From a virus: a stretch of 64,000 nucleotides of DNA. The notes below the pieces were generated by a model. It was not told the origin of the DNA and did no database searches. It was given only the letters and a program-made list of their open reading frames with translations. Shown piece after piece: positions 3,062 through 58,891 of this stretch (position 1 is the stretch's first letter; each line of letters begins with the position of its first letter). The stretch is from the IMG/VR virus record IMGVR_UViG_3300045988_090087. One strand, given 5' to 3'. The position numbers and the translations under genes are program-made.

Positions 3062-3466
3062 TTTTTATATGATTCAAAATAAATTCACAAAAATTATGTC
3101 ACAAAAATTATGAATAGAACAAATGTAGGAATGAATGAAGTGAATCCTCCAATGAATAAAATAAATCTGTGAGTGCATAAAAAATTTGTAAGTGTCTGAT
3201 AATCAAGGAGTTATGAAAATACTCTTCTTATCTTATACGTGAAAAATATTTTACATTTTTAAAATTTTAAAATTTTTAAGTTACTTTATATATTCCCCCC
3301 CCCGTTATTTTTTAGGAACTGTTACATTAATGGCTTTTATTGAAGTAGTTAATTTTTAAATTAAATTTAGTGATTTACACGGGTGTTCACTGCCCCTTAG
3401 AGCCCCCCACATATTTGGAGTAAAAACCAAATAAAAATTATTAACAAATTTAAAAAGTTAAAGATT

Positions 3467-7644: not shown

Positions 7645-8106
7645 ATGATAAATGTATTTCAAAATGAGAAGGAATATACAATTTCTGTGACTATTCCTAT
7701 TAAAAAAGTAAATTTCTCTGAAACTCCATCAAAAAGAGATTTCAAAAAGTTTGCAGAAGAAGTATTTGAAGCTTATACTAATATTATAGTAGAAGCTTTG
7801 GAAGCTCGAATGAATGCTTGTGTTAATGGTCTTATTAAGCATTCAGATGATGTAAAGTATTGTGATAGTAAATATATTACATACACTAGAAAATCTGGTG
7901 GAGAACATACTTTCTCTTATAATGCTTATGATACTATGCAAAGATTAGTTAAAAAAATTCAGCAATATAAGTTGGGTGAATTAACTAAGTCTGAACTCAA
8001 ACAGATTGCTAAAGCTCTTTATTGGGTTGAAGATAAATCAGATATTGGAAAATATACATTCCAGGACTTAATTGATGTAATCGATGAATACCGAGAGTTT
8101 AAATAA
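7645..8106 (+). CDS. Hypothetical protein
   Basis: ORF track. Confidence 0.6.
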   Translation: MINVFQNEKEYTISVTIPIKKVNFSETPSKRDFKKFAEEVFEAYTNIIVEALEARMNACVNGLIKHSDDVKYCDSKYITYTRKSGGEHTFSYNAYDTMQRLVKKIQQYKLGELTKSELKQIAKALYWVEDKSDIGKYTFQDLIDVIDEYREFK

Positions 8107-8458
8107 AAAAATTGTATCAGGTTGTGAGAGTCTTGCCGGTAAAGCTCTCACAATAGATCATGATGCTAGAACTTATCACATTGGTGATAGAGTAATTCCA
8201 TTTTCTTCTTGTGTTATTAAAGAAGGTAAAATTTATTACTTGACACCAATGTGTAAAGTTCTTGTTGATATGGGTTTTAAAGGCGTAGCAGATTTTACCT
8301 CTAATACAGTTATTTGTACTAGTTTTGATAATTGTAATCGCAATATTAAAACTGTAGGACTTGTAACTATCGACGACAGAGTCTTTATTAAGATTACTCT
8401 TAATTCAGAATTTCCAATGTATGAAGGTTACGAATCTTTAAGAAGTGAAGTTTATTAA
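8084..8458 (+). CDS. Hypothetical protein
   Basis: ORF track; overlaps the upstream gene by 23 nt. Confidence 0.55.
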   Translation: MNTESLNKKIVSGCESLAGKALTIDHDARTYHIGDRVIPFSSCVIKEGKIYYLTPMCKVLVDMGFKGVADFTSNTVICTSFDNCNRNIKTVGLVTIDDRVFIKITLNSEFPMYEGYESLRSEVY

Positions 8459-8603
8459 GTAAAAGAATGAAGCTACACTCTAGTACTATAGAGTATAATG
8501 AATAGTTGACATCTTGGAAAGAAAATTGGTTAATCATAAGACAAGACTTATGTATTTTTAAAATAAAATAGTTATCAACAATATACAGTTTAGATCATTT
8601 TCG

Positions 8604-8632
8604 CTAGTTCGGTCTGTGATAGATAGGGCTAG
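8604..8632 (+). repeat. Conserved-loop hairpin, copy A
   Basis: Stem CTAGTT/GGCTAG (two G-U pairs); loop CGGTCTGTGATAGATAG. Confidence 0.5.
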
Positions 8633-8685
8633 TTACTTTAGTAATCTATTATGTCCATAAGCACAATAGATTACAAAGACAAATA

Positions 8686-8718
8686 TTAGAGTTCAGTCTG
8701 TGGTAGATAGAACTCTAA
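8686..8718 (+). repeat. Conserved-loop hairpin, copy B
   Basis: 9-bp stem TTAGAGTTC/GAACTCTAA; loop AGTCTGTGGTAGATA. Confidence 0.6.
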
Positions 8719-8807
8719 GTGTAAACCTACATCCTGCATATCCAAAGTAGCAGACTCTTAATGAGAAAGGTGATGGCACATTATTAATAATTAAATAGTT
8801 TAAAAAA

Positions 8808-8978
8808 ATGGAGACAAAAGACATTATTAAGATTACAGCATTAGTCTTTTCTAAAAAGAAAACTATTGCACAAGTAAGTAAGGAGTACAAAGCTATTCAT
8901 GGTAAAGAACTTCCAATCAAGAGTGACTTAGAAACATTACAAGCACAATTATCTTTGGGAGGAATTTATCAATGGTGA
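8808..8978 (+). CDS. Small hypothetical protein (56 aa)
   Basis: Hand-translated: METKDIIKITALVFSKKKTIAQVSKEYKAIHGKELPIK...GGIYQW. Its stop overlaps the next ATG. Confidence 0.4.
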   Translation: METKDIIKITALVFSKKKTIAQVSKEYKAIHGKELPIKSDLETLQAQLSLGGIYQW

Positions 8979-9331
8979 CAATGAATCACAATACTCTGGG
9001 AGAATTAGTAATAATGCTCTCAGCACAGATTGATGCAGAGTACAATATTTCTAAGACTACACATGCTAACTATGCTAATGCTTTCAATAAGAAGTATCAA
9101 TATCTTAATAATACATTAAGAATTATTTCTGGAGAAAGTATAAAGGGAGGAACATTTGCAGCATATATTAGAAATCCTTTGTTAGTATTATCAGGACTAA
9201 TTATGGATAAGTACAAGAAAATATTATTTACAGATATAAAAGGTAACACTTTTGTTGTAAATAATGTTAAATGGCTTTACCAATATATAAGTTCTAAAAA
9301 CATTAATACAGAACCAAGAATATATGGATAA
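8972..9331 (+). CDS. Hypothetical protein
   Basis: ORF track. Confidence 0.55.
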   Translation: MVTMNHNTLGELVIMLSAQIDAEYNISKTTHANYANAFNKKYQYLNNTLRIISGESIKGGTFAAYIRNPLLVLSGLIMDKYKKILFTDIKGNTFVVNNVKWLYQYISSKNINTEPRIYG

Positions 9332-9722
9332 AGGTTTGCTAGTAATTGTTATACTTGCTTTTATTCTATGTGTGATTTGGACTATTGCCAGTCATAATAA
9401 AGTAATAAAACAAGTAAAACTTAATCAGTTAAGAGATATAAGAAGCAACATAAACAATGCTTTAAGTCTCTACGATTGTTTGTATATACATATTAATATG
9501 TATAATAAAGGATTTACTAGGAGTAAATCTTTGACATCTGATGGAATAGTATTTCTATCAGATAACTTATCATCTAAAACTGTAATGTTCAAAGAGGGAA
9601 CTTTAGAATATATCGAAGGTCATTATGAAGCTGACTCTGAAACTTATAAAACAGCATTAGCTACATATAAATCTAGATTAATTTCTGAAGTTAATCTTGA
9701 ACTAGATAGATATAACTATTAA
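9324..9722 (+). CDS. Membrane-anchored hypothetical protein
   Basis: N-terminal TM segment LLVIVILAFILCVIWTIA. Confidence 0.6.
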   Translation: MDKGLLVIVILAFILCVIWTIASHNKVIKQVKLNQLRDIRSNINNALSLYDCLYIHINMYNKGFTRSKSLTSDGIVFLSDNLSSKTVMFKEGTLEYIEGHYEADSETYKTALATYKSRLISEVNLELDRYNY

Positions 9723-9733
9723 TTTTAAAAATT

Positions 9734-10129
9734 ATGGAATTATTATTTAATGTTAAACAGAAAAATGTTGTGGCTAAGATTGGTGAAGATTACTTCTTTC
9801 TTAGCAAGAAACCAAAGAAACTAGAGTTTGCTGATTCAGTGCATAAGACTTTAGTCTTAAAGCATTTTAAAGCTCTGAAACCAACTATTGAAGAACATTC
9901 AGTTATTGATGAGTCATTAACTGTAGATGAGTGGAAAGATTTTCCAGTATGGTTAGAGAATGAATCTAATGGCGCTGAAGGAAATCTTGAGATTACTAAA
10001 TTTACTTATGGTAATATTAAACTGTATGTAAATGGTGGATGCCTTTGTGGAAATGTTCCAGAATATGCTTTAAAAGGCATCATTAAATTGTTCAAACAAT
10101 TTAAAACGAAAGAAAATGCAGACAATTAA
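9734..10129 (+). CDS. Hypothetical protein
   Basis: ORF track. Confidence 0.6.
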   Translation: MELLFNVKQKNVVAKIGEDYFFLSKKPKKLEFADSVHKTLVLKHFKALKPTIEEHSVIDESLTVDEWKDFPVWLENESNGAEGNLEITKFTYGNIKLYVNGGCLCGNVPEYALKGIIKLFKQFKTKENADN

Positions 10130-10631
10130 GAAAGTAAAGTACAGCATTGAGAGAGTTGGTAACAGTACGTTTTGTACTATGTCTTGTGATTTAGAGTACA
10201 TAATGGATTACTTAGAAGGAGCTAATATAAAAGTTTCAAGTGCTGATACTTCTGTATTCCTTAAAATTGCGACTTCTAAAGAAAGAAAGATTTTCATTAA
10301 AAACCTTGCTTCTTGGGGACTTACTATTGATAATTCTACTGTAACAGTCGTTTCTAAAATTACTTTAAGTAAAAATGATAAGGACGACCAGGTAGTAGCT
10401 AATCGAATTGTAAGAGATAAAGCTATGCATACTATGTGTAAAGTTATTGCAAATGCTTTAAATCAGGCTTTGGATTCTACTTATAATAGATTAGCTAAAG
10501 TAAACAATATTATTAATAAGTTAGAGCACATTGCTTATCATTCAAAATATAATGAGGATGATACAACATGTGATATTGAAGATTATCCAGATCCAGGAGA
10601 TAATGATGTGGATATTGCAGACATACTATAA
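10116..10631 (+). CDS. Hypothetical protein with acidic C-terminus
   Basis: ORF track. Confidence 0.6.
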   Translation: MQTIKKVKYSIERVGNSTFCTMSCDLEYIMDYLEGANIKVSSADTSVFLKIATSKERKIFIKNLASWGLTIDNSTVTVVSKITLSKNDKDDQVVANRIVRDKAMHTMCKVIANALNQALDSTYNRLAKVNNIINKLEHIAYHSKYNEDDTTCDIEDYPDPGDNDVDIADIL

Positions 10632-10800
10632 AATTGTCTTTGTATTGTATTAAAGTTTAAAATTTGCAAAATATGATGATTTAAACTATAAAATTTGAAA
10701 TTAACAAATTTTTACTTTTACAATGGATATTTGAAACTATAGTAGAGTGTTGTTGAGAAACAATGCTCTATATGCTATTAACTTTATAAAAATTATAATT

Positions 10801-11010
10801 ATGAAAGTTTTAAGAAAGATATATAATGTTATTAACAATAGCATTCAGTCTCGTGTAGTCAATTCTAAAGAAGAGGCTAACAAATACATTATTTCGTTCA
10901 ATAGAACTTTAGAAAATAAAGTATCTCTTGAGACAGTAAACAATAAACAGGTAGAAGCCATTAAAATTAATGGTAAATGGTGTATATCTGAAACTGAAAT
11001 AATAGAGTAA
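10801..11010 (+). CDS. Hypothetical protein
   Basis: ORF track 10747..11010; the first ATG is at 10801. Confidence 0.45.
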   Translation: MKVLRKIYNVINNSIQSRVVNSKEEANKYIISFNRTLENKVSLETVNNKQVEAIKINGKWCISETEIIE

Positions 11011-11027
11011 TTCTGTAAAGTTCATAT

Positions 11028-11059
11028 ATATTGTTGGCAACTAGCAGATAATTAGTTGC
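11028..11059 (+). promoter_or_regulatory. 32-nt leader element (copy 1), 4 nt upstream of a tRNA
   Basis: ATATTGTTGGCAACTAGCAGATAATTAGTTGC is identical to 13643-13674. It contains the hairpin GCAACTA-N9-TAGTTGC. Confidence 0.4.
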
Positions 11060-11063
11060 ACTT

Positions 11064-11148
11064 GGAGGAATAGCACGTAATTGGAAGCGTCACAGTCTTC
11101 TAAACTGTTAGCATTATGCTCTTGAGGGTTCGAGTCCCTCTTCCTTCA
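11064..11148 (+). tRNA. tRNA, anticodon TCT (Arg by anticodon) on a long-variable-arm body
   Basis: Acceptor GGAGGAA/TTCCTTC; anticodon arm ACAGT-CTTCTAA-ACTGT; variable arm AGCA-TTA-TGCT; T arm GAGGG-TTCGAGT-CCCTC; discriminator A. Confidence 0.6.
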
Positions 11149-11155
11149 CGCATAT

Positions 11156-11236
11156 ACGGAGTTAGCTTAATGGCTAAAGCACCTCATTTTCACAATTCAT
11201 AGAGAGGTTATATTGGTTCGAATCCTTTACTCCGTA
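11156..11236 (+). tRNA. tRNA-like gene with about 7 extra nt next to the anticodon loop (TTTTCAC, Glu-type loop)
   Basis: Acceptor ACGGAGT/ACTCCGT; D arm GCTT-AATGGCTA-AAGC. The central region CCTCA-TTTTCAC-AATTCAT-AGAGG is too long, and the T stem has U-U mismatches. Confidence 0.45.
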
Positions 11237-11259
11237 CTAACATTAAAAGATTGAGTAAT

Positions 11260-11610
11260 ATGAAAAAGATTATTTTATTAATGAGTTTTATTGTATTAAC
11301 TACAATAGCTCATGCGTTTAATTATGGTTCTATCACTGTTTATCAAGATGGTGAATGGAGTGATCCATTTTACATTAAAACTTCAGTAGTATATAATGAA
11401 GCTAGAAAAACTATTACTTTTAGCAATAGTAAGTTTGGTAAAATGGTATTAAAAATATACTCTTCTGAAATGAAGGATGGAGTAGAAATCCATAACTGTG
11501 GAGAGGTTAATACAGGAAGACGCTTTGTTGTCTTTATTACAGTAAGAAATAAAATTCCTTACGTAACTCTTAGTACTTCCGCAGATACCATGTTTTCATT
11601 TGGCTTTTAA
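11260..11610 (+). CDS. Secreted small protein (signal peptide)
   Basis: MKKIILLMSFIVLTTIAHA-FNYG...; embedded in the tRNA cluster. Confidence 0.6.
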   Translation: MKKIILLMSFIVLTTIAHAFNYGSITVYQDGEWSDPFYIKTSVVYNEARKTITFSNSKFGKMVLKIYSSEMKDGVEIHNCGEVNTGRRFVVFITVRNKIPYVTLSTSADTMFSFGF

Positions 11611-11665
11611 GTTTCCATAATAATGTGTTAACGTTTTACTAGTTTTCCGATATAAACTAGTACTT

Positions 11666-11748
11666 ACGGTAGTAGCTCAGTGGCTAGAGCATCTCTTTTA
11701 TAATAGGTCATTTCGAGAAGGTCATTGGTTCGAATCCTTTCTACCGTA
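11666..11748 (+). tRNA. tRNA-like gene with about 10 extra nt next to the anticodon loop (TTTATAA, anticodon TAT / Ile-AUA type)
   Basis: Acceptor ACGGTAG/CTACCGT; D arm GCTC-AGTGGCTA-GAGC; then TCTCT-TTTATAA-TAGGTCATTT-CGAGA-AGGTC. Paralog of 11156..11236. A 7-bp leader hairpin sits at 11637-11661. Confidence 0.45.
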
Positions 11749-11856
11749 CAAATTTAATTTGATATATTGTTAGTGTGTTTGGATAAATCCTGACTAATAA
11801 ATTTATTAGTATAGGTAGGTGTTACCACTATTCTCCTTTATAGAAATGTGGGCTAT

Positions 11857-11926
11857 GGAGATATAGCTCAGAAGGTTAGAGCGCGGTGAAAATCCCGAGA
11901 TTGTGGTTCGATTCCACGTATCTCTA
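11857..11926 (+). tRNA. tRNA-like gene, 70 nt, shortened anticodon stem; loop contains GAA (Phe-type)
   Basis: Acceptor GGAGATA/TATCTCT; D arm GCTC-AGAAGGTTA-GAGC; T arm TGTGG-TTCGATT-CCACG. Only CGG/CCG pairs around TGAAAAT. Confidence 0.4.
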
Positions 11927-11971
11927 CTATATACAAGAATAAAATTCTATGCAAAATAAGATTATAAATTA

Positions 11972-12045
11972 GCTCTCTAAGCTTTAAGGTGAAGCACGAA
12001 ACTTTTAATTTCGGGAAGACAGGTCAGTACTGTCAGGGAGCACCA
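11972..12045 (+). tRNA. tRNA-Lys (TTT), CCA encoded, unusual T loop
   Basis: Acceptor GCTCTCT/AGGGAGC; CGAAA-CTTTTAA-TTTCG; T arm GACAG-GTCAGTA-CTGTC; 3' ACCA. Confidence 0.75.
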
Positions 12046-12086
12046 TTAATTTTTAATTTATTAAAAGTATTCATTTGTAATACACG

Positions 12087-12116
12087 AGATTCTCAGTCTG
12101 TGAAGATAGAGAATCT
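12087..12116 (+). repeat. Conserved-loop hairpin, copy C (4 nt upstream of a tRNA)
   Basis: Stem AGATTCTC/GAGAATCT; loop AGTCTGTGAAGATA. Confidence 0.6.
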
Positions 12117-12120
12117 ACTT

Positions 12121-12192
12121 GGCACTATCGTCTAGCTGGTTAGGACGTAACTTTTCAAAGTTAAAAGGCGATTTCGAGCATCGCTAGTGCTA
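12121..12192 (+). tRNA. tRNA-Glu-like (TTC) with irregular anticodon arm
   Basis: Glu-type D arm TCGTCTAGCTGGTTAGGAC. The anticodon arm is TAAC-TTTTCAAA-GTTA (4 bp with an 8-nt loop, or 5 bp with a 6-nt loop). T arm GCGAT-TTCGAGC-ATCGC. Confidence 0.6.
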
Positions 12193-12271
12193 CTCTTCCG
12201 TATTTAAAAAACTAATACGATTAATGTTTAAAATATAAAGTCAGCGGACTTTATAACGTTAAAGAGTTGTT

Positions 12272-12299
12272 AGCTTCTGGTCTGTGAAGATAGGGAGCT
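12272..12299 (+). repeat. Conserved-loop hairpin, copy D (5 nt upstream of a tRNA)
   Basis: Stem AGCTTC/GGAGCT (one G-U pair); loop TGGTCTGTGAAGATAG. Confidence 0.55.
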
Positions 12300-12304
12300 T
12301 TATT

Positions 12305-12392
12305 GGAGAAATGACTGAGTGGTCGAAAGTGGCACCCTGCTAAGGTGTTAGTCATATTACATGGCTCGAAGGTTCGAATCCTTCTTTCTCCG
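12305..12392 (+). tRNA. tRNA-Ser (GCT)
   Basis: Acceptor GGAGAAA/TTTCTCC; loop CTGCTAA; long variable arm; T arm GAAGG-TTCGAAT-CCTTC; discriminator G. Confidence 0.8.
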
Positions 12393-12446
12393 CTTTATTC
12401 ATACTTGTAATTATAAAATATGGTTCGTGAGAATAATATTTTATTC

Positions 12447-12519
12447 GGAGGATTAGTGTAACGGTTTCACACGAGGGACTTTGACTCCCTAATAGGCAGT
12501 TCAACTCTGTCATCCTCTA
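12447..12519 (+). tRNA. tRNA-Gln (TTG)
   Basis: D arm GTGT-AACGGTTTC-ACAC; AGGGA-CTTTGAC-TCCCT; T arm GGCAG-TTCAACT-CTGTC. The leader hairpin GAATAA-TATT-TTATTC abuts the 5' end. Confidence 0.75.
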
Positions 12520-12710
12520 CTAATTAATAAATAGGTACTAAACAACTCTCAGTGACTCTATTAAATAGCGTAATTACCTTAAAATTAATCATTTGGGTTA
12601 AAAAGAGAAAGAACGTTAGATAACTGAGGACAATGGAATAGTTTAAATATAACCAGTGAAAATCGCCTATTATTTAAATAGATTATTAACACATTAATTA
12701 TAGATAAATT

Positions 12711-13100
12711 ATGACAAGACAAGATTATTTTATTAGTAAAACCAATTTAATAGCACAAATAGAAAGTGCTAAGAAATTTGGTTGTAAACATGTACTCAAG
12801 TGTGCAAAGTTAAACTTAGCTGAACTTGAAAAGAAGTACAAAAAAGAACATCTTTCTAATCCCCTGTTCAGTTACATGGTAACTGATGAAGAAATGGACG
12901 AACTTATTAGAAATGATGAAAAACCTACATTTAAAATCAAAGTAACTTTTAAAAGTGGAGAAGCTTATGATTTGATGTTTTATCATGAACTTAAAAGTGG
13001 AGTTAAACATTCTGATGTTGTGAAATGGGCGATGATAGGATTAACTAAAACTATTCATCATCCTGAAAATATTGTAGATGCTCGTTTTATTATGGGTTAA
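12711..13100 (+). CDS. Hypothetical protein
   Basis: ORF track; AACACATTAAT motif upstream. Confidence 0.6.
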   Translation: MTRQDYFISKTNLIAQIESAKKFGCKHVLKCAKLNLAELEKKYKKEHLSNPLFSYMVTDEEMDELIRNDEKPTFKIKVTFKSGEAYDLMFYHELKSGVKHSDVVKWAMIGLTKTIHHPENIVDARFIMG

Positions 13101-13105
13101 AAGAT

Positions 13106-13465
13106 ATGGAAGTAAAAACAATACAGATTGACTCTGATACATTTTTAGTGTTTAAGGGACGAGAGTACAGACAGATAAACATAAATGACATTGTATGTAT
13201 AAAAACATCTGGTAAATATAGTACTATAATAGATGTTCATGGTAATAGTATTATTGTGTGTTGTTCATTAAAAAATATTTCACGTGTTTTATGTATTAAT
13301 TTTATTCTTGCAACACAAGGATTTTTAATAAATCATAAATACATATCTGAGATAACTAGAAAGAATGATGAAAACAATACATATATCTTAAAATTAAATG
13401 ATAATATTCATACAACTGTGGATATTTCATTATATGTAGCTACAAATATATTAAAACAACTGTAA
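13106..13465 (+). CDS. Stand-alone LytTR-type DNA-binding domain protein
   Basis: ININDIVCIKTSGKYSTIIDVHGNSIIVCCSLKNISRVL...FLINHKYISEI follows the LytTR pattern. Confidence 0.55.
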   Translation: MEVKTIQIDSDTFLVFKGREYRQININDIVCIKTSGKYSTIIDVHGNSIIVCCSLKNISRVLCINFILATQGFLINHKYISEITRKNDENNTYILKLNDNIHTTVDISLYVATNILKQL

Positions 13466-13466
13466 T

Positions 13467-13586
13467 ATGAAGAAAATAGTATTAAAAGTAACAGTAGAAG
13501 TTCCGGATGATTATATATTGGATGATCCATCTTGGTTATTAGAAAACATTGGTATTGGATATGATTATGATGTTGAACGTATTTAA
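13467..13586 (+). CDS. Small hypothetical protein (39 aa)
   Basis: Hand-translated; the ATG is 2 nt after the upstream stop, and a terminator hairpin lies at 13607-13637. Confidence 0.35.
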   Translation: MKKIVLKVTVEVPDDYILDDPSWLLENIGIGYDYDVERI

Positions 13587-13642
13587 TTTATTTGAAAAAT
13601 AAGAATACCAACCCCTATAAATTACATGTTGGTTTTTCCCAA

Positions 13643-13674
13643 ATATTGTTGGCAACTAGCAGATAATTAGTTGC
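13643..13674 (+). promoter_or_regulatory. 32-nt leader element (copy 2), 5 nt upstream of tRNA-Leu
   Basis: Identical to 11028-11059. Confidence 0.4.
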
Positions 13675-13679
13675 TTTAT

Positions 13680-14290
13680 CGCTTAGTGGTGAAACTGGGA
13701 TACACGAGGGACTTTTGGAACACCAGTAATGGTGAATTTGAGTGCTCTATTAGAAATAATAGAAGTAGAATCTCCCTAATTAAACAAGTTAATTACTAAT
13801 TGTAAAAAGGTTAGCATCTGTGTAAGAAGCAGAGTAATGATTATAGAAGCAGTATTCAGAAATCTAATTAACTTGCGACAGAAGCCTCACTTATGGTGAC
13901 ATAGGTTTTGGTGGTGACGAGCTAAATTGTGATAGAACGCTAATCTATCTTAAATGTAAATTGGAGTGTTACAGCATAAATGTGTAGAGACTATAGAGGA
14001 GATACCTAAGTTAATTAAAAGGAATGGTTTAGACTTCATCCTTAGTAATAAGGTTATAATAGTAATGCATTATGTAAAAAAGGAGACGCTCATTGAGAGA
14101 GGTAAAACCTAATTCCTTACTTCGAAGTTAATTGATAAGGTAATAAAATAGTCCAGACTACAATAACTTATAGAGGCAGAAATATTGGTGTAATTTAGCA
14201 TTGCTGTAAGTTAGCTTGTATAAAAGCAAGTGTGGTAGGAAAATCCCTTGACCAGGAATGGTCTTACGGGTTCGAATCCCGTCTAAGCGA
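13680..14290 (+). tRNA. tRNA-Leu (TAA) interrupted by a 525-nt intron
   Basis: Exon 1 (13680-13714) ends ...AGGGA-CTT. Exon 2 (14240-14290) is AAAA-TCCCT, a long variable arm, then ACGGG-TTCGAAT-CCCGT-CTAAGCG-A. Spliced length 86 nt with loop CT-TAA-AA. Confidence 0.7.
13715..14239 (+). mobile_element. ORF-less group I-type intron between anticodon positions 34 and 35 of tRNA-Leu(UAA)
   Basis: U precedes the 5' junction and the intron ends in G (14239). An R-like CAGACTACA lies at 14154-14162. The track shows no ORF of 60 aa or more. Confidence 0.55.
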
Positions 14291-14367
14291 CATATTAATG
14301 TATTAATTTGTGAAAATTGATGAATTTCTTGTAATTACCTATATTTAGTCGAGAGTGACTAAAAGCT

Positions 14368-14399
14368 AACTCACATTGCTTGTGAAAGTAGTATGAGTT
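14368..14399 (+). repeat. Conserved-loop hairpin, copy E (variant loop)
   Basis: Loop TTGCTTGTGAAAGTAG, identical to copy F; the stem sequence differs. Confidence 0.5.
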
Positions 14400-14434
14400 T
14401 TAAATAAAATTATATAACATACTAGTATAAATTG

Positions 14435-14506
14435 AAATGTGTAGCTCAATAGCTAGAGCGTCTATCGTAGAGTAGAAGGTTGGCAGTTCAAATCTGTCCG
14501 CATTTC
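14435..14506 (+). tRNA. tRNA-like gene, anticodon undetermined (irregular anticodon arm)
   Basis: Acceptor AAATGTG/CGCATTT; D arm GCTC-AATAGCTA-GAGC; T arm GGCAG-TTCAAAT-CTGTC. The central part folds only as TCTA-TCGTAGAG-TAGA. Confidence 0.5.
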
Positions 14507-14548
14507 CTTTTTCTATCATTATTTTAATTTTTAATTTATTAAAAATAA

Positions 14549-14578
14549 AAGAGCTTTGCTTGTGAAAGTAGAGCTCTT
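14549..14578 (+). repeat. Conserved-loop hairpin, copy F
   Basis: Stem AAGAGCT/AGCTCTT; loop TTGCTTGTGAAAGTAG. Confidence 0.55.
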
Positions 14579-14750
14579 ATCAAAATTATGCGAAAACTTT
14601 AATAAGTTAAGGCTTCTTAAAAAGCCTAAAGTACTTAGTGTCTTAGTGGCAAGTTGCACGTCCGGCTAGCAAGTAGGAAGGAGAGGAAGTAGCGACCCTC
14701 AGACACTTTTATAAATTGCTCAAGTATCCGCTCTGTCTTATACACTAATC

Positions 14751-14822
14751 CTTGAGGTCGGCTAATGGTTAGGCTCGATGTCTTATACACATCCAATCTG
14801 GGTTCAAGTCCCAGCCTCAAGA
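14751..14822 (+). tRNA. tRNA-Ile (TAT)
   Basis: Acceptor CTTGAGG/CCTCAAG; GATGT-CTTATAC-ACATC; T arm CTGGG-TTCAAGT-CCCAG. Confidence 0.7.
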
Positions 14823-14911
14823 CTACTTTTTATCATATTATTATTCTGAAGAGTCTAATTAGTTAATCTAGTTAGGCTCTTTTATTGTTTAATTAAATAA
14901 CACATTAACAT

Positions 14912-15208
14912 ATGAAGGATATAAATAAAATTATTGATTCACTAAGTCCAGTAGAACAAAACTTAATGTATAATGCATTACAAAAGAAGCTTAATAGAGG
15001 TCCAGAATACACTATTAGTTATGACAAAAGTGGATATTACGTTAAGTGCGATAGTCCTCAGTTAACTGCTTTTAGATTTGAAGAAGAGAAATATGCTGAA
15101 TTGGCTTATCATATTTATAATAGTGTTTATGGTACAGGCACTCCTCTTAGTGATATTATTAAATACACCTTTAGACTTCTTAATATTGATTCAGAATGGA
15201 CAAAGTAA
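14912..15208 (+). CDS. Hypothetical protein
   Basis: ORF track; AACACATTAAC motif 3 nt upstream. Confidence 0.6.
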   Translation: MKDINKIIDSLSPVEQNLMYNALQKKLNRGPEYTISYDKSGYYVKCDSPQLTAFRFEEEKYAELAYHIYNSVYGTGTPLSDIIKYTFRLLNIDSEWTK

Positions 15209-15414
15209 TGTTACAGGTAAATGACATCTTTTCCCAAGCGTGGAAAGGATGTCAGAAACCTATGTGGTTTAGAATTCTTAATATAGATAGAATTACTAAC
15301 AGCATAGAAGTGGAGTGTCATTCATTTGATGGTCTTAATGTATTTCCTGAAGTTTGGTCTTTAGATTCTACAGAAGCAGGATTTGAAATTGGTGATTATA
15401 AATTAGTTAAATAA
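15196..15414 (+). CDS. Hypothetical protein
   Basis: ORF track. Confidence 0.55.
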   Translation: MDKVMLQVNDIFSQAWKGCQKPMWFRILNIDRITNSIEVECHSFDGLNVFPEVWSLDSTEAGFEIGDYKLVK

Positions 15415-15416
15415 TT

Positions 15417-15860
15417 ATGTGTTGGATAGAAATTTTAAGAAATGTAAAATATCAAGTTGCAGATAAAGATATTGAAGTTTATAAAATAGTTACATTGGCT
15501 AATAAGCAATCGTGTGTATCTATCATTAAAAACTTTAATTATACTGCAAATATATTATATAAAATACCAACCCTTGAATGTAATGAGATAGCTAGAAGGT
15601 ATGGGACGCTTAAGATAGAAAAAGCTTATCATAGTTATACTGGAGTACAATTTGTATGTAATTCTGCTTTTCACAAAGTCAAGGGGATATATAGATGCAA
15701 ACGTATGATATTCGGAAATAGAAGAATGTTTATACCTTTTGAAAATGATAGTTATATAGCAACTTTTATAATTCCTAAAGGCGCTGTCTATACTATTAAT
15801 AGTTGTGGGGAAATTGTGTCTGATAAAATCATTTATACTGGTAAATATTTAAAATTATAA
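15417..15860 (+). CDS. 'MC' family paralog 1
   Basis: MCWIE...; shared motifs DI.VYK, YHSY, FIIPKG..Y..N..GE.VS..IIYTGKY. Confidence 0.7.
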   Translation: MCWIEILRNVKYQVADKDIEVYKIVTLANKQSCVSIIKNFNYTANILYKIPTLECNEIARRYGTLKIEKAYHSYTGVQFVCNSAFHKVKGIYRCKRMIFGNRRMFIPFENDSYIATFIIPKGAVYTINSCGEIVSDKIIYTGKYLKL

Positions 15861-58062: not shown

Positions 58063-58190
58063 AAAAATTAATTTTTTTATAATTTTCTTTTTGGAGGCAA
58101 AAAATATAGATTATATTAGCATTACAAAGATAAAGAAAAAACATCGCAGATGATTTGATAATAAGAATTAATGTTAATATATTTTTGAAA

Positions 58191-58835
58191 ATGAGTGAAA
58201 TTTTTAATTTTAAGAGTTTTGAAGTAAGTGCAGAAACAAAGGAAGCAGCAGTAGCACAGGTAGAGAAAGAGAATTTTCATATTAATGGTGATGCAACACA
58301 GGCATGGAAGAAGTTCCATGAGAAGAATGCTAAAGTAACTTCTAATGATGAGAAGGAATTTAAGCTGGAGTATTTGAAGAAAAAGACTAAGAATGCTCCT
58401 GGTAGTGGTTTCATTGTAACTCTTTCTAGTGCTGTTGTAAGTACACGTGAGCGTCCTTGGAAGGTTGTTGATATTAAGACTGAGGGTAAGCGTGATACTC
58501 AGAAGAAGTTTGATTTGGTAGACCACGATACAAAGGAAGTGCTGAAGACTTTGAAGTCTGAGCGTGTAAAGAACGAGAAGGCTGGCGAGCCAATTCTTGA
58601 TAAGGATGGTAACGATACTGGTCGTGTTGAACCAGATACAAAGGTTATTCGTCCTACTAAGACCGCAGCTAAGGAAATGGCTAAGGAACTTATTAAGAAG
58701 GGCTTTAAGGGTCAGATCGATATCGTTCAGGGTAAGGAGTCTATTGGCTCTGACCCAGTAGTAGCTACTGTAACTTATACTCCATCTAAGAGTACTAAGA
58801 ATGGTCGCTATATGTTCTTTGGTTTGGAATTTTAA
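58191..58835 (+). CDS. Hypothetical Lys/Glu-rich protein with a GC-richer codon profile
   Basis: ORF track 58155..58835; ATG at 58191; a strong terminator follows. Confidence 0.65.
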   Translation: MSEIFNFKSFEVSAETKEAAVAQVEKENFHINGDATQAWKKFHEKNAKVTSNDEKEFKLEYLKKKTKNAPGSGFIVTLSSAVVSTRERPWKVVDIKTEGKRDTQKKFDLVDHDTKEVLKTLKSERVKNEKAGEPILDKDGNDTGRVEPDTKVIRPTKTAAKEMAKELIKKGFKGQIDIVQGKESIGSDPVVATVTYTPSKSTKNGRYMFFGLEF

Positions 58836-58857: not shown

Positions 58858-58891
58858 AAGGCAGGTGCTCGCGAGAGTATCTGCCTTTTTT
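58858..58891 (+). terminator. Rho-independent terminator
   Basis: AAGGCAG..CTGCCTT followed by TTTT. Confidence 0.65.

Follow-up and report, generated by a model that had tools for sequence, protein, structure and literature searches.

Tuerk et al. reportedly described, in 1988, C(UUCG)G hairpins in the intercistronic regions of phage T4. GNRA tetraloops are intrinsically stable. The yeast RNase III Rnt1p acts on AGNN-capped hairpins, which it cuts at a fixed distance, and phage T7 makes a comparable use of RNase III hairpins located between genes. The stem-loop at the 3' end of histone mRNA, with its partner SLBP, defines and protects the 3' end of the RNA. In E. coli, RNase P is slowed about 10-fold by a stem-loop located 2 nt upstream of the cleavage site, which sets the order of processing (PMC10731613).

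We have analyzed a 64-kb stretch of viral DNA (the window), for which an earlier note had listed six hairpins with similar loops. These six hairpins are true members of a large family of RNA stem-loops found in phages of gut Bacteroidales, a family which is absent from Rfam and from the literature searched. In these phages, their placement at gene ends and before tRNA genes probably marks RNA boundaries.

Hairpins in the window

We have scanned the window with a covariance model, which was built from independent copies and used with filters off on both strands. Eight copies are found on the + strand and none on the - strand, an enrichment above chance, with E values from 2e-8 to 6e-4 (Table 1). 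The next-best match, at 3322-3357, is borderline (E = 0.018) and has no GNRA cap, it has not been counted as a copy. The six hairpins first listed are confirmed in position and sequence, and copies G and H are new.

Table 1. Hairpins of the family detected in the window and the tRNA genes which follow some of them
Feature	Position	Strand	Structure	Context	E value
Copy A	8603..8633	+	8-bp lower stem with two G·U pairs, G•A mismatch, GUCU/AGAU helix, GUGAU pentaloop		
Copy A, model match	8601-8635	+			1.5e-4 (27.1 bits)
Copy B	8686..8718	+	9-bp lower stem, A•A mismatch, GUCU/AGAU helix, GUGGU pentaloop		5.8e-4
Copy C	12087..12116	+	8-bp stem, GUCU[GUGA]AGAU apex	4 nt 5' of tRNA 12121-12193	1.3e-6
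Copy D	12272..12299	+	7-bp stem with G·U pairs, GUCU[GUGA]AGAU apex	5 nt 5' of tRNA-Ser 12305-12393	2.1e-8
Copy G (new)	12413..12444	+	9-bp A/U stem, G•A mismatch, GUUC[GUGA]GAAU apex	ends 2 nt 5' of tRNA-Gln 12447-12520	9.8e-7
Copy E	14368..14399	+	GCUU[GUGA]AAGU apex, lower stem with one C•A mismatch	UUUU directly after; 35 nt 5' of tRNA 14435-14507	5.1e-6
Copy F	14549..14578	+	13-bp helix, all paired, GCUU[GUGA]AAGU apex; dG -17.8, z -6.8	41 nt 3' of tRNA 14435-14507	8.3e-8
Copy H (new)	58858..58887	+	8-bp stem, GCUC[GCGA]GAGU apex	22 nt 3' of the stop codon of ORF 58155-58835; T6 run at 58886-58891	9e-5
tRNA 3' of copy C	12121..12193	+		Glu in orthologues	
tRNA-Ser 3' of copy D	12305..12393	+			
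tRNA-Gln 3' of copy G	12447..12520	+			

The six first-listed copies fold on the + strand only, with dG values of -12.2 to -17.8 kcal/mol and z from -3.3 to -6.8. Copies A and D were said to need G-U pairs, which is correct. On the - strand, their folding energy is near -3 kcal/mol, for z values close to -0.5 to -0.8. All ORFs near the copies which are long enough to resemble genes are also on the + strand. Copies C and D do precede tRNAs at the short distances originally reported.

The window has as close relatives MT835539 and L064, a 177-kb IMG/VR contig. In orthologues the structure is kept despite stem changes, and the loop alternates between 4 and 5 nt. For example, the L064 orthologue of copy C has a GUGAU loop, and copy D has a different stem in L001 and L064, with the pairing of the helix kept. 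In a 95%-identical relative the loops of copies A and B are different (AUGAC and GUGAC), which means that some copies tolerate changes in the loop.

The apical module

The earlier note had described an open, conserved loop of 14-16 nt. In fact, this region is a 4-bp helix with a GUGA cap, replaced by a pentaloop (GUGAU or GUGGU) in copies A and B. The consensus of the module is 5'-Y N G n1n2n3 GUGA n3'n2'n1' U A G-3', on a lower stem of 7-9 bp which is free in sequence. Going up from the lower stem, a Y·G pair is followed by an N•A mismatch, an invariant G·U pair and three co-varying pairs, and the whole is capped by a GUGA (GNRA) tetraloop. The triplets UCU/AGA, CUU/AAG, UUC/GAA and CUC/GAG are all found, and the difference between copies A-D and copies E and F is a compensatory swap, GUCU/AGAU versus GCUU/AAGU.

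The lower stem offers a non-circular test for the exact 14-mer. An in-register stem of at least 5 bp accompanies 91 of 130 viral matches and 15 of 27 matches labelled as Bacteroidota genomes, versus 4 of 94 matches in other taxa. Matches in other phyla, read as chance, almost never have a stem. The inner triplets also co-vary: in sites of the form G-NNN-GTGA-NNN-TA which have a lower stem (the searched form, TCT/AGA, left out) the triplets are fully complementary in 38 of 40 cases, with 10 paired combinations, versus 21 of 174 sites without such a stem.

The features of the apex have been counted in 785 hairpins, none of which contains any of the k-mers searched. GTGA is the commonest loop (n=80; the runner-up has n=19). 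When GTGA-loop hairpins are compared with those having other loops, the outer pair is G·U in 65/80 versus 129/705, the 3' unpaired base is A in 50/80 versus 220/705, and a Y-G pair tops the lower stem in 64/80 versus 195/705.

Pair counts in 105 sequences, a set chosen for pairing, give 98.8% paired positions, with both sides varying at 10 of the 11 pairs. The six lower-stem pairs under the Y-G top pair present all four Watson-Crick types with similar frequencies. Structure and covariation are established, and the variable, co-varying stems below a conserved apex which had been proposed for the six hairpins are borne out. A CRISPR repeat or solitary repeat unit (RNA anti-CRISPR) has been rejected, as it needs a conserved stem.

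Genomic context

Among the first 124 distinct copies, 118 are intergenic, and the upstream gene lies on the strand of the hairpin in 82 cases and on the opposite strand in 24. The nearest tRNA is co-oriented with the hairpin in 116 of 118 copies. Together with the conserved wobble pairs, these values agree with the proposal of an element acting as + strand RNA, and they establish its strand specificity and intergenic position.

Two contexts are established. A T-rich tail follows 143 of 302 distinct copies (about 47%), and 52 are found 0-10 nt 5' of a tRNA on the same strand; for 18% of the 302, the gap to such a tRNA is 2-9 nt. None of the 302 lies 0-10 nt 5' of a tRNA on the opposite strand, or within 10 nt 3' of any tRNA. 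The earlier view that no U tract follows the hairpins holds for copies A-D, F and G, not for copies E and H. The accompanying view, that the element is not a terminator, fails for the family as a whole, and copy H, to judge from its sequence, looks like an intrinsic terminator. A generic terminator scan of positions 8000-15500 reported none of the copies.

An element acting at the DNA level (attC- or REP-like), which would form a cruciform or a hairpin in single-stranded DNA and serve in recombination, replication or the exchange of cassettes, would fit two observations: copy G, which is found in L064 and missing from L001, varies as a unit between close relatives, and gene ends are also the position of attC and REP. 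Nevertheless, we consider it extremely improbable. The complement of the conserved G·U and U·G pairs is an A•C mismatch, and the - strand is unfolded; orientation tracks transcription nearly always; the T tract of half the copies is on the sense strand only. Moreover, attC and REP conserve the sequence of the stem (base) and have a variable apex, the opposite of what is found here.

The lower stem has a narrow range of lengths (7-9 bp in 229 of 302 distinct copies), and 37 of 53 distances between the conserved A and position +1 of the tRNA fall within 10-12 nt. With a conserved apex on a free stem, this is what would be expected from a tetraloop-guided processing site, in which an endoribonuclease would read the GUGA cap and the hinge and cut at a fixed distance, at the base of the stem, yielding mRNA 3' ends and aiding tRNA release. 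On the other hand, a helix of only about 13 bp is short for a bacterial RNase III, the U tract in half of the copies already accounts for 3'-end formation, and the constant distance may merely reflect a constant stem length and a short gap. Such a site appears improbable to us. A ruler enzyme deduced from the fixed distance between cap and tRNA has been discarded for a similar reason: the distance is inseparable from the constant stem length, and it is blurred by chance stem extension in counting.

Leader hairpins of unrelated sequence precede 168 of 407 tRNAs in these phages, versus 313 of 2000 random positions. The link with tRNAs is thus a general property of hairpins, not specific to the GUGA apex. 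This is one argument for a purely structural cap, a favoured, fast-folding nucleation module reused for terminators and tRNA leaders with no trans-acting partner, which would parallel the recurrent C(UUCG)G hairpins of T4. Two further observations agree with it: the two contexts have no other common sequence, and other GNRA loops (GCGA, GAGA, GGGA) fill the same frame. However, the conserved G·U pair, the N•A mismatch and the Y·G top pair (U·G in 185 of 302 copies) reduce stability, and the pair closing the loop is mostly U-A rather than C-G. Selection for stability only should have produced C-G closing pairs and Watson-Crick replacements, and these features argue against such a cap, which we regard as rather unlikely.

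We have also looked for other signals. The sequence of the stem is not tied to the identity of the downstream tRNA: the stems are unrelated, and no link is found among at least 13 tRNA identities. A promoter role has been rejected, as inspection by eye gives no consistent Bacteroidetes -7 motif (TAnnTTTG) 5' of the window copies; sigma-70-like matches around these copies are not above chance.

Distribution in phages and bacteria

The identical module is found, on unrelated stems of 7-9 bp, in hundreds of IMG/VR phage contigs and in Bacteroides phage crAss001, which has one strong copy about 6 nt 5' of an annotated tRNA-Glu. It is also present in some Bacteroidales chromosomes or prophages. In Prevotella and Bacteroidaceae chromosomes, copies end ordinary genes, for example 3' of sugar-kinase-like and Maf-like ORFs (translations read by eye). 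The phages carrying it are diverse, with contigs of 4-370 kb and 26-50% GC, besides the crAss-like phage. This taxonomic range is established.

Some phages have a much higher density of copies than the host genome loci sampled: in 210 kb of Bacteroidota genome loci only two copies were detected besides the searched 14-mer. Such scarcity would be odd if a general host factor reads the signal.

Two 40-kb regions, from Lak-C1 and Lak-B1, contain no copy, though the Lak-C1 region has 19 tRNAs. A host factor, if any, is therefore not used by every Prevotella phage. We have also discarded the placement of the window among the Lak megaphages; besides this absence of copies, the matches shared are short and tRNA-sized only.

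The density in some phages could suggest the binding site of a phage-encoded regulator, of the boxB/N antitermination or coat-protein operator kind, which would control read-through or translation. Its architecture would be appropriate, a GNRA-like tetra- or pentaloop with an unpaired A being akin to boxB and to the MS2 and PP7 operators. We find it very unlikely, given how different the carriers are and that copies also lie at the ends of ordinary chromosomal genes of Prevotella and Bacteroidaceae. The flanks of the copies contain no conserved motif, including no boxA-like partner. A boxB or nut site in the strict sense has been rejected: in addition to these flanks, there are 8 copies in 64 kb, while such sites number one or two per phage and lie 3' of early promoters, and many copies themselves look like terminators.

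Possible function

The reading we prefer, to which we assign a probability of about 0.45, is that of a portable boundary hairpin acting in sense-strand RNA, either as a terminator or as a 3'-end cap and tRNA-leader element, whose apex probably docks a trans-acting factor. When followed by a U tract, the hairpin would terminate transcription intrinsically. When it has no U tract and lies 2-5 nt 5' of a tRNA, it would form the final structure in the spacer or mRNA which precedes the tRNA, and the RNase P cut at the 5' end of the tRNA would leave this RNA with a stem-loop as its 3' cap. This stem-loop would insulate the folding of the tRNA and may time cleavage by RNase P. The conserved, sub-optimal hinge and the tetraloop would provide a surface on which a trans-acting factor docks, a host protein being the likeliest candidate; this is the simplest reading of an apex which is conserved yet thermodynamically sub-optimal. 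Termination, 3'-end protection, any influence on RNase P and the binding factor itself are inferred. The recognised processing or stability element first proposed is a reasonable interpretation.

A bolder suggestion, possible if doubtful, is that a Bacteroidales RNA-binding or RNA-cleaving factor recognises the apex (the Y·G / N•A / G·U hinge with its GUGA loop) and sets 3' ends independently of U tracts. The logic would be that of the histone stem-loop/SLBP or of Rnt1p, transposed to bacteria or phages, and many unrelated gut phages would have adopted it to punctuate their transcripts and tRNA arrays.

Bacteroidales are the dominant Gram-negative gut bacteria, and their RNA biology is poorly mapped. 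They are not known to have Hfq or ProQ, and few of their RNA-binding proteins are known. The motif is short, sharply defined and easily searched, with hundreds of occurrences in Bacteroidales phages, including the cultured crAss001. It offers a ready bait for a new RNA-binding or processing factor and a marker with which gut phage genomes could be annotated for transcript ends and tRNA units. It is also a candidate part, as a compact terminator or insulator, for the engineering of Bacteroides. If it has no partner, it would still be a clean new family of RNA motifs, with phages sharing one "brand" of boundary hairpin.

Comparison with known systems

In the window, only tRNAs reach the gathering threshold of Rfam 15. 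Permissive Rfam searches (E up to 5-10), including sub-searches of 250-460 nt of the window and of L062, give no match over the hairpins. The motif is not described in the literature found on its sequence, on Bacteroides terminators and tetraloops, on crAss terminators or on hairpins 5' of tRNAs, nor in the papers on the B. thetaiotaomicron transcriptome map, RbpB CLIP and the UpxY pause hairpin. Likenesses to anticodon loops, Y RNA (Ro-binding helix), the Cas12a handle and the anti-Shine-Dalgarno sequence are only partial matches of 4-5 nt and have been discarded.

Intrinsic terminators are similar in being sense-strand hairpins 3' of genes, with a T/U tract, as found after about half of the family and after copy H. 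The family differs in three respects: a 14-nt apical module is conserved over unrelated loci and phages; an adequate U tract is missing after over half of the copies, and after 7 of the 8 in the window (copy E has only UUUU); and many copies abut tRNA 5' ends, where stopping transcription would be senseless.

The C(UUCG)G hairpins of T4 also present one tetraloop cap which recurs throughout the phage on unrelated stems, at gene boundaries and in terminators. In our case conservation extends 5 bp under the loop, and the wobble pairs and the mismatch which it covers are not explained by tetraloop stability. The stem-loops which slow E. coli RNase P (PMC10731613) are likewise stable and lie about 2 nt upstream of the cleavage site, but they have no common sequence, whereas here a single apex precedes tRNAs of many identities.

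The sites of Rnt1p and of T7 RNase III share with this family a conserved cap, a free stem and a location between genes or RNAs which need to be separated. The family described here has a shorter helix, is bacterial or phage-borne and has a GNRA rather than an AGNN cap. Finally, boxB/N, the MS2 and PP7 operators and the histone stem-loop with SLBP are also short hairpins with a mostly free stem, their recognition depending on loop bases and an unpaired purine. By comparison, the present family occurs in many copies per genome, in very different phages and in host chromosomes.

Hairpins in the phage window

The window is phage DNA with 30% G+C, and its right half contains genes for helicase-, primase- and exonuclease-like proteins and for a nicotinamide phosphoribosyltransferase. 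We have verified the coordinates and sequences of the six hairpins (copies A to F) previously noticed in it, as well as the distances of 4 and 5 nt between copies C and D and the tRNAs which follow them. Copies G and H have been added by a shape search. All are shown in the Table, together with other features.

Table. Family hairpins and other RNA features in the window and in loci from IMG/VR or genome searches (L072, L185, L201)
Feature	Location	Strand	Description	Method
Copy A	window 8604-8632	+		fold
Copy B	window 8686-8718	+		fold
Copy C	window 12087-12116	+	ends 4 nt 5' of tRNA at 12121	fold, tRNA calls
Copy D	window 12272-12299	+	ends 5 nt 5' of tRNA-Ser at 12305	fold, tRNA calls
Copy E	window 14368-14399	+		fold
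Copy F	window 14549-14578	+		fold
Copy G	window 12413-12444	+	GUUC[GUGA]GAAU; 2 nt short of tRNA-Gln	shape search
Copy H	window 58858-58887	+	GCUC[GCGA]GAGU; 22 nt past the stop of ORF 58155-58835, then six T	shape search
Split tRNA gene	window 13680-14291	+	525-nt insert in anticodon loop	ARAGORN, introns allowed
UUA-anticodon tRNA	window 11156-11237	+	11-nt intron
tRNA	window 11666-11749	+	homologue in MT835539 called tRNA-Stop(tta)
Hairpin GCAACTAGCAGATAATTAGTTGC	window 11037-11059	+	within repeated 29-mer; 4-5 nt upstream of tRNA-Arg at 11064
Hairpin GCAACTAGCAGATAATTAGTTGC	window 13652-13674	+	within repeated 29-mer; 4-5 nt upstream of split tRNA at 13680
Intergenic stretch	window 8459-8807	+	350 nt; copy A, 13-bp hairpin at 8641-8674, copy B; z = -3.8
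tRNA-like sequence	window ~11975-12050	+	encoded CCA end, unusual T loop; no call by ARAGORN or Rfam	by eye
Repeated unit	L072 9860-9910	-	family hairpin, then GAAAGA-ATT-GGAC[GAAA]GUCC-UAUCAAGAUAUUU
Repeated unit	L072 10700-10770	-	same unit
Second family hairpin	L201 419-452		near the searched one; Bacteroidaceae / Segatella genome locus
Second family hairpin	L185 6637-6670		near the searched one; Bacteroidaceae / Segatella genome locus

The six original copies fold as RNA on the + strand only, with energies of -12.2 to -17.8 kcal/mol; relative to dinucleotide-shuffled sequences, z values are -3.3 to -6.8. Copies A and D require G·U pairs, and their reverse complements reach only about -3 kcal/mol, which bears out the claim that the structure forms only in + strand RNA. 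An element acting at the level of DNA, which has to be set beside these one-stranded folds, is very improbable. Gene-sized ORFs next to the hairpins are on the + strand without exception. With filters off, a scan of the window by a covariance model of the family gives eight copies, all on the + strand (E from 2e-8 to 6e-4); the next-best match has E = 0.018.

Structure of the conserved apex

The conserved 14-16 nt had been described as an open loop. In fact, RNAfold places in them a 4-bp upper helix under GUGA, a GNRA tetraloop (copies A and B have pentaloop caps, GUGAU and GUGGU), parted from the variable lower stem by a 1x1 mismatch. The upper helix has the form GUCU/AGAU in copies A to D and GCUU/AAGU in E and F, a compensatory swap. 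The family consensus is [5-11 bp, any sequence]-Y-N-G-n1n2n3-GUGA-n3'n2'n1'-U-A-G-[stem].

Among 105 distinct copies, 98.8% of cells are paired and both sides change in 10 of 11 pairs; these figures describe the family only, because the set was selected for pairing. Two tests are not circular: One considers lower-stemmed sites other than the searched TCT/AGA form, the other hairpins without any of the three searched k-mers. For G-NNN-GTGA-NNN-TA sites with a lower stem, the TCT/AGA form being left out, NNN is fully complementary in 38 of 40 cases, with ten paired combinations, compared with only 21 of 174 sites lacking such a stem. Among 785 hairpins of the same shape free of all three k-mers, the commonest loop is GTGA (80 cases, the runner-up having 19). 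The outer upper-helix pair is G·U in 65/80 of the GTGA loops and 129/705 of the others, the 3' unpaired base is A in 50/80 and 220/705, and the top lower-stem pair is Y-G in 64/80 and 195/705. In close relatives, stem changes preserve the structure, and the loop has 4 nt in some cases and 5 nt in others. One entire copy is either present or absent, and drift is seen in the loops of A and B. The earlier proposal of an RNA element whose stems co-vary is right.

Two wobble pairs flanking an N•A mismatch make up the conserved hinge; 185 of 302 copies have U·G rather than C-G. We favour an apex read by a putative trans-acting partner over a purely thermodynamic cap, because the wobble pairs and the mismatch cost stability. 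The same features weigh against a structural cap only, as in the T4 C(UUCG)G hairpins, which we consider unlikely. Recognition, also part of the earlier proposal, is likely.

Distribution of the family

The exact 14-mer GTCTGTGAAGATAG is found in at least 120 IMG/VR loci, mostly on stems of unrelated sequence among the matches listed. The same search over 185,579 species genomes served as control, and hits were scored for an exactly in-register stem of 5 bp or more. Such a stem accompanies 91 of 130 viral loci (among the matches listed), 15 of 27 Bacteroidota-labelled genome loci and 4 of 94 genome loci of other taxa. The genome copies with a stem belong to Prevotella, Segatella, Bacteroides and Bacteroidaceae or to AT-rich contigs resembling misbinned phage. 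The upper-helix variants GGTTCGTGAGAATAG and TGCTTGTGAAAGTAG occur in at least 120 loci each, with in-register stems in 121/138 and 88/126 of the matches listed. The second hairpins found in L201 and L185 suggest that copies also cluster locally in the DNA of hosts or prophages.

The window phage is closely related to MT835539 (95% identity) and to a 177-kb IMG/VR contig. In Bacteroides phage crAss001, a single strong copy at 1879-1908 (38.4 bits) precedes the annotated tRNA-Glu by about 6 nt. No family copy is found in two 40-kb regions, one each of Lak-C1 and Lak-B1, so the window phage is not a Lak phage proper.

Placement at gene ends and before tRNAs

Among the first 124 distinct copies, 118 lie between genes; the gene upstream shares the strand of the hairpin in 82 cases and has the opposite one in 24. 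A set of 302 distinct copies was obtained from 3.2 Mb of phage loci, among the matches listed. A T-rich tail is present in 143, and a tRNA 5' end lies within 10 nt in 53, mostly 2-5 nt away; only four combine both. The earlier view that these hairpins are not terminators is wrong for the family, which overlaps with terminators in its T-rich tails and in the six T after copy H.

Orientation matches that of the nearest tRNA in 116 of 118 copies. A tRNA on the same strand begins 0-10 nt 3' of 52 copies; no opposite-strand copy lies 0-10 nt 5' of a tRNA, and no copy lies within 10 nt 3' of one. The tRNAs behind family hairpins have at least 13 identities. In tRNA arrays, tRNAs abutting the previous one have no hairpin before them, therefore the unit is spacer-hairpin-tRNA(-tRNA). 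Several copies with neither T-rich tail nor adjacent tRNA precede a sequence like a tRNA 5' end, or intron-bearing tRNA-like genes overlooked by the default ARAGORN search. As a caveat, hairpins unrelated in sequence precede many tRNAs as well: In 346 phage loci (the window, L001-L121 and L246 onward), 168 of 407 tRNAs have a hairpin of 7 bp or more that ends in the 10 nt before them, compared with 313 of 2000 random positions. A leader hairpin thus seems to be a general habit of phage tRNAs, and the GUGA-capped family its commonest form.

Other RNA features are found nearby. The 525-nt insert of the split tRNA matches no Rfam intron family at E up to 5; comparable split tRNA-like genes are present in two other loci (L072 and L086). 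The hairpin GCAACTAGCAGATAATTAGTTGC is a second leader hairpin, unrelated to the family. The UUA-anticodon tRNA is a possible ochre suppressor; together with the tRNA-Stop(tta) homologue and a CUA-anticodon tRNA in a relative (L064), it hints at stop-codon recoding. The intergenic stretch with copies A and B, nearly identical in MT835539 save the A and B loops and the B lower stem, may be a small RNA. The two repeated units in L072 occur in a 1.3-kb stretch, in which a scan found no ORFs of 70 aa or more.

Possible role and comparison with known systems

Members of the family are stem-loops of the sense-strand RNA that share a conserved apex and lie at transcript boundaries, either with a U tract or directly before a tRNA. 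They may act as portable RNA boundary modules. With a U tract, the hairpin would terminate transcription. Before a tRNA, it would be the final structure of the upstream RNA, which RNase P cleavage would leave with a 3' stem-loop cap. Such a stem-loop is a classical barrier to 3' exonucleases. The hairpin might also let the downstream tRNA fold undisturbed, and RNase P might be held back: The E. coli enzyme is about tenfold slower when a stem-loop lies 2 nt upstream, and this imposes an order of processing (PMC10731613).

Rfam 15 contains no family matching these hairpins, and the literature searched has neither the sequence nor any description of such a motif. The architecture is similar to that of cap-guided RNase III substrates, and a site for a tetraloop-guided endonuclease is somewhat less probable than a simple cap. 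It also resembles protein-recognised hairpins such as boxB, the MS2/PP7 operators and the histone stem-loop; the binding site of a phage regulator is improbable. On the features tested, the family does not belong with boxB, and its likeness to the others is one of architecture. About half of the copies are like intrinsic terminators, but the family cannot simply be assigned to them. We regard it as a probable boundary or terminator hairpin of a known sort, set apart by its distinctive conserved apex.
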